A stretch of 64,000 nt of DNA from an uncultured Clostridia bacterium (GCA_947627135.1 CANQUV010000014.1:10533-74532); one strand, 5' to 3'; counted from the first letter of the stretch, positions 6,498 to 16,935 are shown. Notes: generated from the sequence alone by a model not told the origin. Numbers and translations: made by a program.

Positions 6498-8297
6498 TTA
6501 CTTGTCTTTATTATTTTGTACCGGATATTCGTTTCTGCTGTGTACCTTTAAAAGACCATTTGCATCTTTAGATATATTTTGCTGTTTTCTTCTTAAATTT
6601 TCTTCTCTTCTTCGCTTTGCTTCCTCGTACTGACGTCGTTTAATCATTTCAGCCTTACGACGCTTACGCATGGTTATATTTCTCTTTATCATTCTGTAAA
6701 GATTTGTGAAAAAATATCCTAAATGTATAAAAAATGATTTTACTCCGTTTAAGAAAATTAAAATTCCGTTAAGAATTACTGCACCAACAGTTTTTGCTTT
6801 TTTCTTAACAATCTCTTTATTTACACTGCTTACATGGTTTCTTTCATTTCTTTCATAATTATCTTCATCATCAACAGTTTTTCTGGAATAAATATCATTA
6901 TCTAATTCTAATTCTTCATCAAAATAGTCCTCGCTTTGCTCAAAACTTCTCTCACTTCCGATTACAGGACTATCCTCGAAATCTACATATTCTTCTTCAT
7001 ATTCTTCTTCATATTCCTCTTCTTCATCTTTGCTATATTCCTGTGTTACTTCACCCTCAAAATGGCTATGTGATACTACTTTGGTTTTCTTAAACGATTC
7101 TTCTTCATACTTATCTGTTACAGAATCTTTCTGTTCGGCTTCTTTAGTTTCTTTATCAGGAGTAACAACTTTTAATATAGGATTTTCTTCTGAGGTAAAT
7201 GCTGTATTGCTATTTTTATTTTGTGTCTCTTTTTCACTTGACGTACTAACTATATTATTTTCACTTACAATACTGATATTATCTGAATTTATCTTTTTTT
7301 CTTCTGTTTTTGCTTCTTCTTTTGACAAAGCCTCTCTTTTTTTATTGATTTCTTCAAAATCTTTTGAATTTCTGAACTGTGTAATAATATCATCTGCAGT
7401 TTCTTCATCATAGGCTGAATTCTTTAATGCTTTTTCTGTTGGAGACATATCTCCCGAAAAATTATTTTGTGAAATAATCGGATGAGATGAATATTCCTTT
7501 GCAAGCTCTGAAAGTATCTCTTGATTTTTGATTTTTTTCTCGTTGTTTTTTATATTTTTTTTCTTTTTCTTGTGCTTTTTCTTTATCATAAAAACAATAA
7601 GAACAATTAATATGATTATTACAAATACTATTATCCAAAAAATTGGATTTGTAATTAAATTCTTCACTTCAAACATTTTATGACCGTCAAACTCTACACT
7701 TTGAAGTATAATATCCATATTCTGATAATCTTCATTTGTAAGCTCGCTGTCTTTTGCAGGCTGCAAGGTTAATGTAATATTTTGACCGTCAATTACTGTG
7801 TTGCATTGAGTTGCATATACAGTTTGATCGTTTGATTTTGTTTTTAGCTGTAACTGCATAAATACATAATTGTTATATCTTTTAACTGTACAGCTTGTAT
7901 ATTCCGCTTCCGCTAAAAAGGAATTTTGAACATTTAAAAGCTGCTCATCATTTAAATCACTATAATTGCCCACGCTTTTACTGTTTTCATCAGAAAACAT
8001 TGTAACAGTAAAAACTCTTGAGCTGTCTTCATACATACCTTGCAAATAAATATTGTTACTATTAAAATTGTTCATAGTTGTAGAATAATCTAAACCAAAA
8101 AGAGAAAAATATTTATCTGTTTCGGGACTCTCTCTTGTAATTGCATACATATTATCAGGTAGATCTAAACCCATATTCAGTTCTTTTATGTAATAATGAT
8201 TTTCTGCAGCAAACGCTGAAAAACATGAAAAAGACAATAGCATTAAAACTACAAAAAAAACGGAATAAATACAAAATCCTTTCCTCATATTAAACAT
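6498..8297 (-). CDS. membrane protein with signal peptide, ~200-aa extracytoplasmic domain, TM helix and long E/K-rich low-complexity cytoplasmic region
   Basis: N-terminal hydrophobic signal ending FSAFAAE. TM segment IFWIIVFVIIILIVLIVFMI followed by KKKHKKKKK. Acidic repeats EEEYEEEYEEEY. A second hydrophobic segment and a basic tail follow. No recognised catalytic motif. Confidence 0.5.
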   Translation of the reverse strand: MFNMRKGFCIYSVFFVVLMLLSFSCFSAFAAENHYYIKELNMGLDLPDNMYAITRESPETDKYFSLFGLDYSTTMNNFNSNNIYLQGMYEDSSRVFTVTMFSDENSKSVGNYSDLNDEQLLNVQNSFLAEAEYTSCTVKRYNNYVFMQLQLKTKSNDQTVYATQCNTVIDGQNITLTLQPAKDSELTNEDYQNMDIILQSVEFDGHKMFEVKNLITNPIFWIIVFVIIILIVLIVFMIKKKHKKKKKNIKNNEKKIKNQEILSELAKEYSSHPIISQNNFSGDMSPTEKALKNSAYDEETADDIITQFRNSKDFEEINKKREALSKEEAKTEEKKINSDNISIVSENNIVSTSSEKETQNKNSNTAFTSEENPILKVVTPDKETKEAEQKDSVTDKYEEESFKKTKVVSHSHFEGEVTQEYSKDEEEEYEEEYEEEYVDFEDSPVIGSERSFEQSEDYFDEELELDNDIYSRKTVDDEDNYERNERNHVSSVNKEIVKKKAKTVGAVILNGILIFLNGVKSFFIHLGYFFTNLYRMIKRNITMRKRRKAEMIKRRQYEEAKRRREENLRRKQQNISKDANGLLKVHSRNEYPVQNNKDK

Positions 8298-8448: not shown

Positions 8449-8525
8449 CGAGGTGTAACTCAGTTTGGTAGAGTGCTTGGTTTGGGACCAAGATGCCGCA
8501 GGTTCAAGTCCTGTCACCTCGACCA
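8449..8525 (+). tRNA. tRNA-Pro (anticodon UGG)
   Basis: Cloverleaf read by eye. 7-bp acceptor stem CGAGGTG/CACCTCG, anticodon loop TTTGGGA with TGG at 8483-8485, T-loop TTCAAGT, encoded CCA. Confidence 0.9.
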
Positions 8526-9026: not shown

Positions 9027-10097
9027 ATGTCTGATACATCTATATTAAAAAAAAGAGTTTTTTCTTATGATATAATACGAATCATAGCTGTTTTAGCAGT
9101 TATTATGATTCATTCATCGGTAGGTTTCGTTACAAGTAACCCGCAATCCACTAACTTTATTTTCGGTAATATTTTTGACGGCATGTCTAGAATTGGCGTA
9201 CCGTTGTTTGTAATGATTTCCGGAGCACTGATGTTAGATGAAAACAAAACTGTTACTATAAAAATAATGCTTAAGTATGCCTTGAGAATTTTTATACTTC
9301 TATGTATATGGTCGCTGTTGTATGCATTTGTATATCAAATTATAAATCCAATAATTAATAATGCTTCTATTTCAATGGACAAGTTTTGGAACGCATTTGT
9401 TTACGGACATTATCATTTATGGTATCTGTATATGCTGATTGGGCTATACTTAATAACACCTATATTAAAAACATTTGTAAAGAAATCAAATGAAAAAATA
9501 ATTCTTTATTTTATAACTCTTGCTGTAATTATTCAATTCACTATACCTCTATGTAATTTATTGATTAATCAAATTACGGGAACAACTAATTTACTGCAAA
9601 ACTTTTTCAGCAAATTTCAGTTAGGTTTTGTCGGGCAATACACTGCATACTATCTTTTAGGCTGGTATATTACAAACATAAATATAAAAAAGAAACACAG
9701 AAATTTATTGTATGCGTTAGGAGTTGTCGGATTATTGATAACCATATTAGGACCTCAGCTATTAATAAACGATACAAATAAAATATACAACAATTTTTAT
9801 TCGGATACGAGCATAAATGTTATGTGTTACAGCGTAGGAGTTTTTGCATTCTTCTTTTACTCTTTAAGTAATAAAAAATACAAACGAAATAGTTCATTTA
9901 TTATGACACTGTCAAATTTAACATTCGGCGTATATTTAATTCACCCGTATATTTTATATCTATTGGGCAAGTTCATTAATACAGGAAATGCATTGACTCA
10001 AGTACCGTTGAATTGGATAACAGCAACTATAATTTCATTCATTATTGTATTTTTAATGTCAAAAATCCCATTGTTAAAAAAGCTTGTAAGGTTTTAA
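9027..10097 (+). CDS. acyltransferase family 3 (integral membrane O-acyltransferase)
   Basis: 356 aa and polytopic. The N-terminal segment FSYDIIRIIAVLAVIMIHS is typical of Acyl_transf_3. AAAGGAG RBS upstream. Confidence 0.7.
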   Translation: MSDTSILKKRVFSYDIIRIIAVLAVIMIHSSVGFVTSNPQSTNFIFGNIFDGMSRIGVPLFVMISGALMLDENKTVTIKIMLKYALRIFILLCIWSLLYAFVYQIINPIINNASISMDKFWNAFVYGHYHLWYLYMLIGLYLITPILKTFVKKSNEKIILYFITLAVIIQFTIPLCNLLINQITGTTNLLQNFFSKFQLGFVGQYTAYYLLGWYITNINIKKKHRNLLYALGVVGLLITILGPQLLINDTNKIYNNFYSDTSINVMCYSVGVFAFFFYSLSNKKYKRNSSFIMTLSNLTFGVYLIHPYILYLLGKFINTGNALTQVPLNWITATIISFIIVFLMSKIPLLKKLVRF

Positions 10098-10213
10098 AAA
10101 TACAGGTAAATCTTTTATTATTTTAATTTTCAAATTACTTATTTTATAACTTATTATTTTTCTTTATATTAAAATACAAAAACAAAGTCAATTAATTTTA
10201 AAAAGTTACATAT

Positions 10214-10275
10214 TGTGCCGCAATAATACAAATTTTGTCATATTTATTGACAATTTTTTTCACATTATTTATTTT
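10214..10275 (+). promoter_or_regulatory. putative AgrA(LytTR)-dependent promoter of agrB
   Basis: Half-sites GTGCCG (G at 10217) and TTGTCA (G at 10237) lie 20 bp apart. The proximal half-site is 10 bp from -35 TTGACA (10247-10252). A 17-bp spacer leads to a weak -10 TATTTT (10270-10275). Geometry matches the modules at 10905 and 13517. Confidence 0.45.
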
Positions 10276-10297: not shown

Positions 10298-10888
10298 ATG
10301 ATTGCGGAAATTTCAGAAAAGATCTCATCTTTTATTTTAAGCAATTCCGATAACAGCAATAAAGAACTTAAAAGTATTTATAAATACGGTATAGAAATTT
10401 TTATTTCTTCTCTACTTAATATATTTTTAATTTTTATTATTGGCTTTGTTACTGATACTTTAATTCAAAGTCTTTGGTTTTTGATTTGTTTTATTCCTTT
10501 GAGACAATTTACCGGAGGATGGCATGCAAATACTTACTTTAAATGTAATCTAATATTTTGTATATCATATATACTTATAATTCTGTTTTCATTTTTATTT
10601 TCTCATATTGAAAACGCATATCTTATCTTTATACTGCTCTTAACAGGTTTATTGCCTGTAATAATTTTAAGTCCTGTTGAAAATAAAAATAAAAAAATTA
10701 AAAATAGAAAAAAATTAAAATTTTTAAGTACTGTATTGTATATCATATTTTCTATAACAAGTCTTTGCTTTTACTTTTTTTATAAGGAGATATCTTTTAT
10801 AATATTATTTACACTGTTGTGTGTATCAATTGCAGTAATTGCAGGGCGTTTATCAGAAGTTCTACAAACCTTTAATCGACAAAGTTAG
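10298..10888 (+). CDS. agrB: AgrB-family accessory gene regulator B (AgrD-processing membrane peptidase)
   Basis: Polytopic membrane protein with LRQFTGGWHANTYFKC. His and Cys are 7 residues apart, as in the S. aureus AgrB catalytic pair (HAPSSFWC). GAAGG RBS precedes the ATG at 10298. The ORF-track start at 10235 would overlap the promoter. Confidence 0.8.
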   Translation: MIAEISEKISSFILSNSDNSNKELKSIYKYGIEIFISSLLNIFLIFIIGFVTDTLIQSLWFLICFIPLRQFTGGWHANTYFKCNLIFCISYILIILFSFLFSHIENAYLIFILLLTGLLPVIILSPVENKNKKIKNRKKLKFLSTVLYIIFSITSLCFYFFYKEISFIILFTLLCVSIAVIAGRLSEVLQTFNRQS

Positions 10889-10904
10889 ATAAAATAATAC
10901 AAAC

Positions 10905-10970
10905 TTTGCCTAAATTATACATATTATGCCTAAATCATTGACTTTATAATTAAATAATTTATTCTAAAAT
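10905..10970 (+). promoter_or_regulatory. putative AgrA(LytTR)-dependent promoter driving an intergenic transcript
   Basis: Direct repeats TTGCCTAAAT and ATGCCTAAAT with G at 10908 and 10928 (20-bp period). -35 TTGACT at 10938-10943, 10 bp from the proximal repeat. -10 TAAAAT at 10965-10970 with a 21-bp spacer. About 27 of 41 positions match the agrD promoter module, including the blocks TTGCC, TACATATT, TGCC and ATTGA. Confidence 0.55.
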
Positions 10971-10977
10971 TACCAAA

Positions 10978-11228
10978 GTAATGTAGCCTATTAAATTAAT
11001 TTTTAATTTACTATCTTTTGCACAACAGTCCTGCTGCATTACTTGGGTCAATTTCGGACCATGGTGTTTGTAATTCTTTGTAAAGGATGCGGCTTTTGCA
11101 TGAAGTGTTGTCGGCTCCTTCTTCAATTTCGACAACTCAGTTTTATAAACGAGGGCGTATAATTCTTTTTTCTGTTGTGCTTTTACGATAGACTAAAGAC
11201 CTTCCCGCATCGGAAGGTCTTTGTGTTA
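10978..11228 (+). ncRNA. candidate quorum-sensing-controlled small RNA (ends approximate)
   Basis: Bounded by the promoter module above and the intrinsic terminator at 11198-11228. Closing helix GCACAACAG (11020-11028) / CTGTTGTGC (11172-11180). Internal hairpin GTTGTCG/CGACAAC (11107-11136) has a 16-nt CU-rich loop GCUCCUUCUUCAAUUU. No ORF has a usable RBS. Confidence 0.4.
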
Positions 11229-11229
11229 A
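11198..11229 (+). terminator. intrinsic terminator of the candidate RNA / agrB read-through
   Basis: Hairpin AGACCTTCC-CGCAT-CGGAAGGTCT followed by TTTGTGTT on the plus strand. Confidence 0.7.
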
Positions 11230-11261
11230 GCTTTTTATATTTTCATTTTCCTTTTTACCCT

Positions 11262-11300
11262 AAACAGACTAATTGATCGATCGGTCAATTAGTCTGTTTT
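11262..11300. terminator. bidirectional terminator (terminates agrC on the minus strand)
   Basis: Near-perfect 15-bp stem AAACAGACTAATTGA / TCAATTAGTCTGTTT, flanked by T-runs on both strands. Confidence 0.75.
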
Positions 11301-11333
11301 ACTTTTAATGCCGGTTTGTAATAATATAATTTT

Positions 11334-12662
11334 TTAATCTGTTCTTAGAATTACAGTTACGCAAAACATATTGTCGGGACTTTCGTATATATCAAGTTTT
11401 CCGTTGTATTTATTTACAATATGATTTACAGAAGTGAAACCAAATCCATGCTTTGATGAATCTTTCTTAGAAGTTAAAAGCTTAGAATTATTTTTCAACA
11501 CGGATTTTTCAATTGAATTTTTAATGGATAGAGTCATCATATCGTTATCAGCGCTTATTTGTATTTTTATGTATCTTTCATTTGATGTGATCTTTTCGCA
11601 GGCTTCAATGGCATTATCAAGTAAATTGCCCAGAAGATTACATAAATCAATATCATCAATATTAATAATATACTTGCTTGACTGCACAAACACATTTATA
11701 CCCACACTTTTTGCATAAATTATTTTAGAATTAATAATTGCATTTACAGTCTCATTATCTGTGCAGACTGTTCCTCCTAAAAACACCTGTTGGTGAAGAA
11801 GCGTTGAAATATATTTTTGAGTTTCTTCAATTTTTCCTTGTTTAAGCTGCGCTTCTATTACAAACAAATTATGCTTTAAATCGTGGCGAATGGTTTTAAT
11901 TTCTTTTTCCTCAAGTTTTATATTCTCCACATAATGAGCCTGATACTCATTTTGAAGTTTCAAGAGTTTATTTTCTGATTCAATATAGTTCGTGCGACTG
12001 AGCCTGACAATCATATAAAATGAAACAATATTCAGTATAACCAGACATAACAGTCCAAATAAGGCAAGAATTTTACCCATTTCATTGAGTTTGTTCTCAA
12101 TATTTATTAAGTCAATGATTGTAAAAACTGCAGTTGAAATTAAAAATGTTGTTATAATTGAAATCCATTCACTGAAACTCATACTGAACTTTTTTTCTTT
12201 TTCAAAAACTTTCTGAATTACAAGTAATAAATAATAGAGTAAAAACTTTGTAATTACAACAGTAAAGGTACGATAAATACTTTGCTGATAAATTAAATTT
12301 TCGAGCCCCTCTCCGCAAATTGTGGAAACTGCTGTTGCAACAACACTATTTACAATAATTATACTTACAATGGGAATAAGCGACACAATAAACTTTATGG
12401 GAATACTTCCGTTTAAGTAAAGCAAACAGAAAATGAATACAATAGTTGAATATAGCACTGCCCCAAAGCTTTCAAATTCAGTTATGCTGTTGACTGCTGT
12501 TACAAGTAAAGAAAACAACAACCAAAAAATCCAAAAGCCCATTATAAATTTTTTGCCGTTTACTTTTTTGCCCAAAAATTCTTTGGCAAAATTTAAAATA
12601 ATAAGGGTTTCAAAACAAGTTGCCAATATTTCAAATACATACCAACAAATTTTTTCCATCAT
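11334..12662 (-). CDS. agrC: AgrC-like sensor histidine kinase (HPK10 family, GHKL ATPase)
   Basis: About 6 N-terminal TM helices. H-box IRHDLKHNL, N-box NLLDNAIEA, G-box HGFGFTSV. Its start overlaps the stop of the LytTR regulator by 4 nt. Confidence 0.8.
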   Translation of the reverse strand: MMEKICWYVFEILATCFETLIILNFAKEFLGKKVNGKKFIMGFWIFWLLFSLLVTAVNSITEFESFGAVLYSTIVFIFCLLYLNGSIPIKFIVSLIPIVSIIIVNSVVATAVSTICGEGLENLIYQQSIYRTFTVVITKFLLYYLLLVIQKVFEKEKKFSMSFSEWISIITTFLISTAVFTIIDLINIENKLNEMGKILALFGLLCLVILNIVSFYMIVRLSRTNYIESENKLLKLQNEYQAHYVENIKLEEKEIKTIRHDLKHNLFVIEAQLKQGKIEETQKYISTLLHQQVFLGGTVCTDNETVNAIINSKIIYAKSVGINVFVQSSKYIINIDDIDLCNLLGNLLDNAIEACEKITSNERYIKIQISADNDMMTLSIKNSIEKSVLKNNSKLLTSKKDSSKHGFGFTSVNHIVNKYNGKLDIYESPDNMFCVTVILRTD

Positions 12663-13381: not shown

Positions 13382-13435
13382 AATTACCCTCCTTATCTAC
13401 TCATCATTAAAATACAATTATATGTAACTAAAATA

Positions 13436-13494
13436 ATTATATCATTATTTGTCATTTTTTCAATAATAGGCGCAAAACAACCGTAAATGTACAA
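13436..13494 (-). promoter_or_regulatory. putative promoter of agrA-agrC with weaker LytTR-like half-sites
   Basis: On the minus strand: -35 TTGAAA (13458-13463), 16-bp spacer, -10 TATAAT (13436-13441). Half-site TTGCGC lies 10 bp upstream of the -35, and TTGTAC lies 19 bp further upstream. Confidence 0.35.
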
Positions 13495-13516
13495 TTTATT
13501 ATGTTTATAAAACATT

Positions 13517-13579
13517 TCTTGCCATAATATTACATATTTTGCCAGTTTAATTGAACATTTATACAAAGCATAGTAAAAT
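13517..13579 (+). promoter_or_regulatory. putative AgrA(LytTR)-dependent promoter of agrD
   Basis: Repeats CTTGCCATAA and TTTGCCAGTT with G at 13521 and 13541 (20-bp period). -35 TTGAAC at 13551-13556, 10 bp from the proximal repeat. 17-bp spacer, then -10 TAAAAT at 13574-13579. Confidence 0.55.
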
Positions 13580-13632
13580 ATTTTCACAAATAAATGATAG
13601 TTTTCTATTATAAAACGAAGGAGGTAAAAATT

Positions 13633-13773
13633 ATGAAGTTTAAAAGAACACTTGCAAATGCAGTTGAGTCTGTATCTGTAAAAATGGCTAAAGCAGCTCA
13701 AGGCAGTGCATCAATCTTTGGTTTTCATCAGCCTAAAGAGCCTGATATGTCTAAACTTACAGAAAAGAAGTAA
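13633..13773 (+). CDS. agrD: AgrD-like autoinducing peptide precursor (46 aa, below the ORF-track cutoff)
   Basis: AGGAGG lies 8 nt upstream of the ATG. Product: MKFKRTLANAVESVSVKMAKAAQGSASIFGFHQPKEPDMSKLTEKK. It has an amphipathic N-terminus, a five-residue SIFGF segment, then the charged HQPKEP tail typical of clostridial AgrD C-termini. An intrinsic terminator follows. Confidence 0.7.
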   Translation: MKFKRTLANAVESVSVKMAKAAQGSASIFGFHQPKEPDMSKLTEKK

Positions 13774-13785
13774 TTAAATTTTAAA

Positions 13786-13822
13786 AAGAGAGTAACAGCA
13801 TTTAAGGCTGTTACTCTTTTTT
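13786..13822. terminator. bidirectional terminator (agrD on plus, Zn-ribbon membrane gene on minus)
   Basis: Stem AGAGAGTAACAGC / GCTGTTACTCT followed by a T-run. Abuts the stop of the minus-strand gene at 13825. Confidence 0.75.
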
Positions 13823-13824
13823 TA

Positions 13825-14235
13825 TTAAAATAAAATATTCTTTTTAAATTGGTGCCTGCATTTTGGGCAGCGAACTGTATGAACTCCCTTTTTTCTGGGA
13901 ACTCTCAACTGTGCCTTGCAATTGGGACATTTAAAGTAACATAAGCTCTTAATATCTCTGATCTTTTTTATTTGAAATGAAAAAAATGAATTAACCTTTT
14001 TATAAACAGGTAAAAACTTGTTATTTTCATACAATCTTTTTGTAATATTTTTAGATAACGATCTGTAAAGGCATAATCCTAAAAAAAACAGACCTATTAT
14101 ACTTAAAATCCAATTTCTGAAAAAAAGGTTTATTACAAAAATTATTCCCCACAGAATCAGTAAAAAAGTATTGAGCTGGTCGTTACCATAACGACCCTGC
14201 ATAAAATAATACAGTTTTTGTATTAACATTCTCAT
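13825..14235 (-). CDS. small membrane protein with C-terminal zinc ribbon
   Basis: Two hydrophobic helices, then CPNC...(17 aa)...CPKC. Confidence 0.5.
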   Translation of the reverse strand: MRMLIQKLYYFMQGRYGNDQLNTFLLILWGIIFVINLFFRNWILSIIGLFFLGLCLYRSLSKNITKRLYENNKFLPVYKKVNSFFSFQIKKIRDIKSLCYFKCPNCKAQLRVPRKKGVHTVRCPKCRHQFKKNILF

Positions 14236-16782: not shown

Positions 16783-16841
16783 CGGGCAGAAAAGGCATTT
16801 TTTATATGGCGCTGTCTGCTCGAAAAAACAGCCCACCGGCT
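16783..16841 (+). repeat. intergenic hairpin-forming repeat, copy 1
   Basis: CGGGCAGAAAAGGCATTTTTTATATGGCGCTGTCTGCTCGAAAAAACAGCCCACCGGCT. Nearly identical to copy 2, which lies 94 bp downstream. Confidence 0.8.
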
Positions 16842-16876: not shown

Positions 16877-16935
16877 CGGGCAGAAAAGATATTTTTTATA
16901 TGGTGCTGTCTGCTCGAAAAAACAGCCCACCGGCT
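16877..16935 (+). repeat. intergenic hairpin-forming repeat, copy 2
   Basis: CGGGCAGAAAAGATATTTTTTATATGGTGCTGTCTGCTCGAAAAAACAGCCCACCGGCT. Ends at the stop codon of the DHHW gene. On the minus strand it begins with the hairpin CAGCC-GGTG-GGCTG plus a T-run, which looks like a terminator. Confidence 0.8.

Follow-up and report, generated by a model that had tools for sequence, protein, structure and literature searches.

The DNA considered here is a stretch of 64,000 nucleotides from an uncultured Clostridia bacterium (GCA_947627135.1, CANQUV010000014.1:10533-74532), referred to below as the window, and our subject is a small open reading frame (ORF) on its plus strand at positions 13633-13773, together with the agr-type quorum-sensing genes and candidate regulatory elements around it. 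The ORF consists of 46 codons and a stop, and its translation is the 46-aa precursor MKFKRTLANAVESVSVKMAKAAQGSASIFGFHQPKEPDMSKLTEKK. Our results show that this SIFGF-encoding ORF is a real, conserved gene for an AgrD precursor. The product can be divided into a leader (M1-A26), a ring segment (S27-F31, SIFGF) and a follower (H32-K46). The codons of the ring segment, at 13711-13725, would give a five-residue macrocycle in which the side-chain oxygen of Ser27 is predicted to be joined to the carboxyl of Phe31, while the C-terminal follower HQPKEPDMSKLTEKK, coded by 13726-13770, is probably the region that AgrB recognizes and cleaves, with the cut placed before His32.

The expression signals of agrD are compact. 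A ribosome-binding site, AGGAGG, lies at 13619-13624 on the plus strand, exactly 8 nt from the agrD ATG, and it is kept as AAGGAGG in the related loci L005, L007 and L014; in L011 the corresponding sequence is GGAGGA, shifted in the alignment. A longer, 59-aa reading from an ATG at 13594 was ruled out, because the homologues begin at the MKF/MSF position and the ribosome-binding site serves 13633. At the 3' end of agrD, a bidirectional intrinsic terminator (13782-13824) combines a hairpin with a T-run and has a folding energy of -23.3 kcal/mol (z = -7.75 against shuffled sequences). The same element scores as a terminator of the convergent gene on the minus strand at 13825-14235 too, and the two genes share it. 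The initial annotation had described a 46-aa ORF with a ribosome-binding site at 8-nt spacing and a terminator, and all of these are present, with small corrections to the coordinates. The product of the convergent gene is a membrane protein of 136 aa that carries a zinc ribbon, CxxC...CxxC (MJ0042-type, 24 bits), at its C-terminus; the gene is kept near the locus in all lineages, and in some of them other genes lie between it and agrD.

Opposite to agrD runs a 102-aa ORF (13393-13701, minus strand), which is present as a mechanical open frame only. Gene callers give a 64-aa version of it on identical public contigs, with no Pfam match, and in the other three lineages no gene is called in this region, which can be aligned there only with large indels. 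The initial annotation had called this antisense frame spurious.

Upstream on the same strand, agrB (10298-10888) codes for the membrane peptidase-cyclase AgrB (PF04647, E 1.5e-38), whose GGWHA...C motif supplies His76 and Cys83. This +7 spacing of His and Cys matches that of H77/C84 in Staphylococcus aureus. An alternative agrB start at TTG 10235 was discarded, since its position is upstream of the predicted promoter and 10298 is the start that gene callers choose. A PDB sequence search with AgrB returned no match. Two genes on the minus strand lie between agrB and agrD and overlap each other by 4 nt (12659-12662): one codes for an AgrC-like membrane histidine kinase (11334-12662; HATPase_c_5 GHKL domain, PF14501, E 2.3e-25) and the other for an AgrA-like response regulator with a receiver domain, PF00072, and a LytTR domain, PF04397 (12659-13381). 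The resulting order, agrB forward, a gap, agrC and agrA in reverse and agrD forward, is kept in the lineage of the window and in L005-L010 and L014.

Three of the promoters at this locus share a direct-repeat box. That of agrD (13513-13543, plus strand) reads CATTTCTTGCC-N9-CATATTTTGCC with a 21-bp period and is a candidate site for the LytTR regulator (AgrA box); it is followed by a sigma-70-like promoter at 13551-13579 (TTGAAC at 13551, 17 nt, TAAAAT). The agrB promoter region (10209-10275, plus strand) has its box at 10209-10239, with two mismatches, then 7 nt and TTGACA (10247)-17-TATTTT. The third, at 10900-10965 on the plus strand directly 3' of the agrB stop, consists of a box at 10900-10930, 7 nt and TTGACT (10938)-16-TATTCT, and belongs to the element called X below. 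At all three promoters alike the second repeat ends 7 nt before the -35. The pattern CAnnnnTTGCC-N9-CAnnnnnTGCC has two exact occurrences in the window (10900 and 13513) and none in 100 shuffles; an independent repeat search recovered the same three boxes (10209, 10900 and 13513), that at 13513 as repeat family D1. The agrD box has an aligned counterpart upstream of agrD in each of the four lineages. The match to the pattern is exact in the lineage of the window, L011-L013, L014 and L019, and the second repeat differs (CGCC) in L005 and L007. The agrB box is kept in L005, L009 and L014, and the X box is also conserved in other lineages.

Sites of the LytTR/AgrA type, such as those at P2/P3 of S. 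aureus, are paired repeats about two helical turns apart that abut the -35. The arrangement at agrB, agrD and X has this architecture, and we infer that the regulator binds there. The promoter of the agrA-agrC pair (13436-13463, minus strand) is a strong sigma-70-like one, with TTGAAA, 16 nt and a TG-extended TATAAT, and matches the consensus at 11 of 12 positions. Since this promoter is near-consensus and has no box, unlike those of agrB and agrD, the sensor pair looks constitutive and signal production alone looks autoinduced.

The transcript that would start at the third box-bearing promoter is a candidate agr-controlled non-coding RNA of about 260-330 nt, here called X (10972-11299, plus strand), ending either at a hairpin at 11195-11222 or at a terminator at 11262-11299. 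It lies in the 445-bp gap between agrB and agrC, the length of which is kept in the L005 lineage. The region of X is conserved in three lineages, the hairpin at 11195-11222 is a conserved one, and 11262-11299 is a plus-strand terminator. No ORF on either strand is conserved among the three lineages, and an Rfam search of 8-16 kb at E <= 1 found only a tRNA, with nothing above noise in X and the agrD region. X folds better than shuffled sequences (z = -3.1 for the window, -2.9 for L005), and a CU-rich CUCCUUC motif is placed in a predicted loop. Consensus folding of four sequences from three lineages gave weak covariation (7 pairs) and an unreliable middle part of the alignment, and for these reasons no consensus structure of X is claimed. 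It is tempting to see X as an AgrA-box-driven structured effector RNA of clostridial agr and a functional analogue of RNAIII, with the CUCCUUC loop acting as an anti-Shine-Dalgarno sequence, but we hold this idea only tentatively, at somewhat less than even odds, and the RNAIII-analogue label itself is speculation.

The AgrD-like nature of the precursor, proposed in the initial annotation together with a comparison with the curated family of cyclic lactone autoinducers, is borne out by that comparison and by a locus that contains AgrB, an AgrC-like kinase and a LytTR regulator. The NCBIfam model TIGR04223 (AgrD family cyclic lactone autoinducer peptide) has a cutoff of 19 bits and gives the peptide 27.1 (E 3.4e-6), residues 6-38 aligning with positions 2-34 of the 38 in the profile. 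The features expected of an AgrD are all found in it: a length of 46 aa, within the usual range of about 40-60, a moderately amphipathic leader with a hydrophobic moment of about 0.4-0.46, a Ser at the place of the nucleophile (Cys or Ser), five residues ahead of the predicted cut, and a Pro-containing, charged follower (HQPKEPDM...). When the family profile was run against the six-frame translation of the 64 kb, only the agrD frame (13594-13770) matched, with 78 bits, the next best having 9. No agrD directly follows agrB, and the ORFs of at least 20 aa at 10850-11340 bear no resemblance to AgrD.

To place the peptide among its relatives, a first profile search covered 1.84 billion representatives (50% clustering) and gave 65 matches at E < 1e-3, and a second search with the alignment of these matches gave 193 proteins (90% clustering), or 183 distinct sequences. 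The query profile carried Ser at the ring position, which imposes a mild penalty on Cys and does not exclude it. Ser27, Gln33 and Pro37 are invariant in the 64 aligned representatives (64/64). Among the 183 sequences, the ring position is Ser in 181, Thr in one and Phe in one, and Cys in none, so that Ser27 is the family-wide nucleophile; it is also the sole hydroxyl or thiol residue conserved throughout the family. The proposal that the ring spans S27-F31 and is closed by Ser27 agrees with these counts. Position 26 is Ala in 173, position 25 is Ser in 107, Ala in 35, Thr in 28 and Asn, Arg, Glu, Gly or Tyr in 8 together, the residue after the ring (position 32) is His in 110 and Tyr in 67, and positions 34-36 read PKE in 163. 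The HQPKEP tail, which the initial annotation had described as a recognition signature, is an instance of the [HY]QPKEP follower that is the hallmark of the family, and the followers of FsrD and of the precursor of the Staphylococcus intermedius/pseudintermedius autoinducing peptide (AIP) differ from it. The signature of the Ser-type AgrDs as a subgroup is A-S-x-[FWY]-G-x-[HY]-QPKEP and their commonest ring is SIFGF, found in 17 distinct precursors. As judged by sequence, the SIFGF peptide belongs to an all-Ser subgroup of TIGR04223, with no difference at the level of the family.

A separate observation concerns position 23, four residues upstream of the invariant Ser, where 21 of the 64 Ser-type representatives have a Cys (C-x-S-A-S). 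This residue could form a second ring or an alternative nine-residue thiolactone, or could be part of the leader; it is absent from the SIFGF peptide and its close orthologues.

Among close orthologues the core of the peptide does not change. The segment SASIFGFHQPKEPDM is identical in four species-level lineages, and five close homologues (63-85% identical) keep it while the leader varies. Across codons 25-39, 6 distinct DNA alleles show synonymous variation at 10 of 15 codons and no nonsynonymous change, which demonstrates selection on the translated product: agrD is under purifying selection. The initial annotation had counted a lack of conservation of SIFGF-HQPKEP in orthologous loci as evidence against its own proposal, and the segment is present and invariant in four lineages. 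By comparison, identity to the window in the other lineages is 57-69% for AgrB, 65-77% for AgrC (56-75% for its sensor half) and 65-73% for AgrA, with 81-86% for FprA and 84-91% for LDH. A protein that shares a cluster (>=90% clustering) with FprA of the window comes from a metagenome-assembled genome labelled "Ruminococcus sp.". The core peptide is therefore far more conserved than its enzymes and receptor, and this is the opposite of the staphylococcal pattern: the S. aureus AIP is hypervariable, whereas the core here is invariant between species. A scan of the genome collection with the AgrD alignment gave a single locus, in a metagenome-assembled genome of the P0005 type, and a scan of metagenomes with AgrA gave one distant match only, with 41% identity.

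A characterized relative of the peptide is AgrD of Clostridium thermocellum (Acetivibrio/Hungateiclostridium), Clo1313_2818, with Ser25...Phe29, Tyr30 and a conserved Pro35; its product is a tail-free lactone pentapeptide, verified by liquid chromatography-tandem mass spectrometry (LC-MS/MS) against a synthetic standard, the linear form being inactive (Verbeke et al. 2017, Sci Rep 7:43355; PMC5322536). Compared by published residue positions, both precursors have a five-residue ring closed by Ser and ending in Phe, an Ala before the Ser and a Pro at +10 from it (Ser27...Pro37 here, Ser25...Pro35 there). The residue after the ring is Tyr30 in C. thermocellum and His32 here, and the family has H or Y. 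Two family members, P0038 and P0067, fit the published numbering S25/F29/Y30/P35. Unlike the full locus described here, however, agrD of C. thermocellum has no agrB, agrC or agrA nearby (PMC5322536), and the organism in question here is a mesophilic, gut-type, uncultured Ruminococcus-like lineage.

We consider it likely, with a probability of about 80%, that in an uncultured Ruminococcus-like Clostridium of low GC content this ORF represents agrD within a complete agr-type quorum-sensing locus and that its product is processed in the following way. AgrB, through His76 and Cys83, would cut between Phe31 and His32 and hold Phe31 as a thioester on Cys83, and the hydroxyl of Ser27 would then resolve this thioester to a five-residue lactone macrocycle. 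Judging from the invariant Ser and the relative verified by LC-MS/MS, a lactone is the expected product of AgrB; the initial prediction that the ring is a lactone and not a thiolactone gains support in this sense, by analogy with a clostridial precedent that has identical Ser-to-Pro spacing. The leader would be removed after Ala26, the most likely site because Ala is near-invariant at -1 and because it is equivalent to A24|S25 in C. thermocellum, leaving the tail-free cyclo(SIFGF) as in that relative, with a computed [M+H]+ of 552.2817. The AgrC-like kinase would sense the peptide and activate the LytTR regulator, which in turn would bind the direct-repeat pairs at the agrB, agrD and X promoters and close a positive feedback loop, while agrA-agrC would be transcribed from their own strong, constitutive-type promoter.

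Several points weigh against this reading. No Pfam family matches the 46-aa peptide at E <= 1, and this includes the staphylococcal-type AgrD, PF05931. The AgrC-like kinase matches the staphylococcal AgrC model over residues 51-417 and the regulator matches the staphylococcal AgrA equivalog weakly, in both cases far below cutoff, which is the reason why we call them AgrC-like and AgrA-like and not equivalogs. At the locus, agrD is not adjacent to agrB and lies 2.7 kb away from it, across agrCA. In the L011-L013 lineage, no agrB is found within the fetched flank, and the place between the 3' end of X and agrC where it would be is taken by a 1010-aa ABC2_membrane_3 gene (L011:360-3392); agrD, agrA and agrC are intact there and the SIFGF core is unchanged, with only the 3' part of X (L011:67-156) present at the edge of the locus. 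Where the leader is cut and whether an exocyclic tail remains are matters of prediction that cannot be read from the sequence, Ser25-Ala26, invariant in the close orthologues, may belong to such a tail, and a tail-free Ser lactone may not be a stable end product. Regarding the distance between agrD and agrB, more distant Ser-type AgrDs abut AgrB, along with regulator and kinase, in three gene orders, which indicates that the partnership with AgrB is general and gene order plastic.

The fate of a tail-free lactone leads to the alternative that survives best, namely that the active end product is the lactam cyclo(Ser-Ile-Phe-Gly-Phe), formed by an O-to-N acyl shift after cleavage at Ala26|Ser27. 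The lactam has the same mass as the lactone. A tail-free Ser lactone could rearrange in this manner because its own alpha-amine adjoins the ester, and O-to-N acyl migration is rapid at neutral pH in peptides. In 173 of 183 sequences an Ala precedes the ring Ser at -1, and the residue at -2 is small, as would suit cleavage right in front of Ser27. In C. thermocellum, SignalP places the cut at the equivalent A24|S25 and a tail-free species was detected (PMC5322536), and tail-free clostridial thiolactone AIPs are known to rearrange to lactams (Molloy et al. 2021, PMC8251862). The C. thermocellum product, however, matched a synthetic standard described as a lactone and the cyclic form alone was active (PMC5322536), and Ser25-Ala26, invariant in four close lineages, could be a two-residue tail that blocks the shift. 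On balance, we regard the lactam as rather unlikely to be the active form.

If the ring were closed through Ser25, the product would be the seven-residue macrocycle SASIFGF. Ser25 is invariant in the four close lineages and larger rings do exist, such as the nine-residue lactone GBAP of Enterococcus faecalis (PMC12312760). Of the 183 sequences, however, 35 have Ala at position 25 and a further 8 have Asn, Arg, Glu, Gly or Tyr there, and for this reason Ser25 is not a conserved nucleophile; at position 27, 182 have Ser or Thr. The characterized C. thermocellum relative closes its ring through the Ser that lies five residues ahead of the cut (PMC5322536), and the larger ring is therefore highly improbable. 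We give just as little credence to a linear signal, in which the conserved A-S marks a peptidase site and AgrB merely removes the follower. Cyclization cannot be proven from sequence and S-A-S does look like a small-residue peptidase site, but AgrD has as its signature an invariant Ser exactly five residues ahead of the site where AgrB cleaves, AgrB keeps its catalytic Cys83, from which we infer that the acyl-enzyme chemistry is retained, and the linear pentapeptide of C. thermocellum is inactive where the cyclic one is active (PMC5322536). That the ORF is a chance open frame in AT-rich intergenic DNA and gives no peptide has a practically negligible probability and is refuted as far as comparative sequence data allow, since although the frame has only 46 codons and a longer mechanical ORF overlaps it on the opposite strand, it passes a curated HMM, has 183 distinct relatives, keeps fifteen invariant residues over 10 synonymously variable codons and has a conserved ribosome-binding site, promoter boxes and terminator, unlike the antisense ORF, which is not conserved.

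The lactone-forming system preferred here shares a number of features with agrBDCA and RNAIII of S. aureus. Both have the four protein roles, an AgrB with the His/Cys dyad at +7, a LytTR regulator and paired direct repeats that lie immediately upstream of the -35 at a distance of about 21 bp from each other, and in both one box-driven transcript of the locus is, or here appears to be, a non-coding RNA. In contrast to S. aureus, the nucleophile is Ser and not Cys, the Pfam AgrD model is unmatched and the genes do not form a single operon, being arranged as agrB, X, the reversed agrC and agrA and then agrD, with a box-less promoter of its own for agrCA. Neither its sequence nor Rfam links X to RNAIII, and X codes for no conserved peptide. 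Lactones closed by Ser are also known as the AIPs of S. intermedius and S. pseudintermedius and as GBAP, derived from FsrD of E. faecalis, and, as is predicted for the SIFGF product, they are made by enzymes of the AgrB/FsrB type (PMC12312760). These organisms are Bacilli, however, and exocyclic tails are present both on the staphylococcal AIP and on GBAP, the ring of which has nine residues. The cyclic AIPs (cAIPs) of Ruminiclostridium cellulolyticum resemble the predicted product in that they are clostridial, tail-free, made by AgrB and of five or six residues, and the lactam question has been raised for them too, but they use Cys and an S-to-N shift (PMC8251862). The same study described Ser cyclization as rare and Cys as a conserved feature of clostridial AgrDs, and stated that what becomes of tail-free Ser lactones, for example the one of H. 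thermocellum, "remains to be clarified" (Molloy et al. 2021, PMC8251862).

With respect to novelty, the initial annotation went too far in two respects. It presented the gene as unannotated and likely to be missed, which in general it is not: gene callers gave the exact 46-aa product on 7 public contigs, the orthologue MDD5795685.1 carries the NCBI name "cyclic lactone autoinducer peptide", and other members with that name are found in NCBI (Oscillospiraceae, Ruminococcus sp. and Ruminiclostridium sp.) and IMG. The record of the window itself seems to be an NCBI assembly that has no protein accessions. The implied rarity of a Ser-type ring was likewise overstated, because there is a large all-Ser subfamily and a Ser lactone has already been documented in Clostridia. 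The SIFGF AgrD is a correct but ordinary call, a member of a known, curated and partly characterized family, and making it is routine since a family model, a product name and a verified Ser-lactone relative already exist.

Other features of the window lie outside the agr genes. A tRNA gene at 8449-8522 on the plus strand (Rfam RF00005, 67 bits) is located upstream of an acyltransferase-3 gene at 9027-10097. On the minus strand, 6498-8297 codes for a predicted 599-aa protein. Its N-terminus is signal-like, a hydrophobic segment lies in its interior and long stretches of low complexity are rich in Lys and Glu; no Pfam match is recorded for it on public contigs. Two 59-nt direct repeats on the plus strand (16783-16841 and 16877-16935), 95% identical and 94 nt apart, sit between ldh and a convergent gene of the DHHW/ALGX family and give rise to several mechanical small ORFs.

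Examination of this locus brings into view a large AgrD subfamily, centred on Oscillospiraceae and Ruminococcus, with Ser as the ring residue of 181 of its 183 members and Cys in none of them, even though cyclization through Ser is called "rare" in the literature consulted. Because the precursor stands beside its own AgrB, kinase and regulator, with a recognizable regulator box, the locus is a convenient system for the question of lactone versus lactam. The third box-driven transcript, X, is a testable candidate for an agr-controlled small RNA outside Staphylococcus. If X is indeed an effector, then together with the SIFGF core, invariant in several species and the commonest ring of the Ser-type family, it would form a quorum circuit of gut Ruminococcus-like bacteria that has a shared language and RNA as its output.

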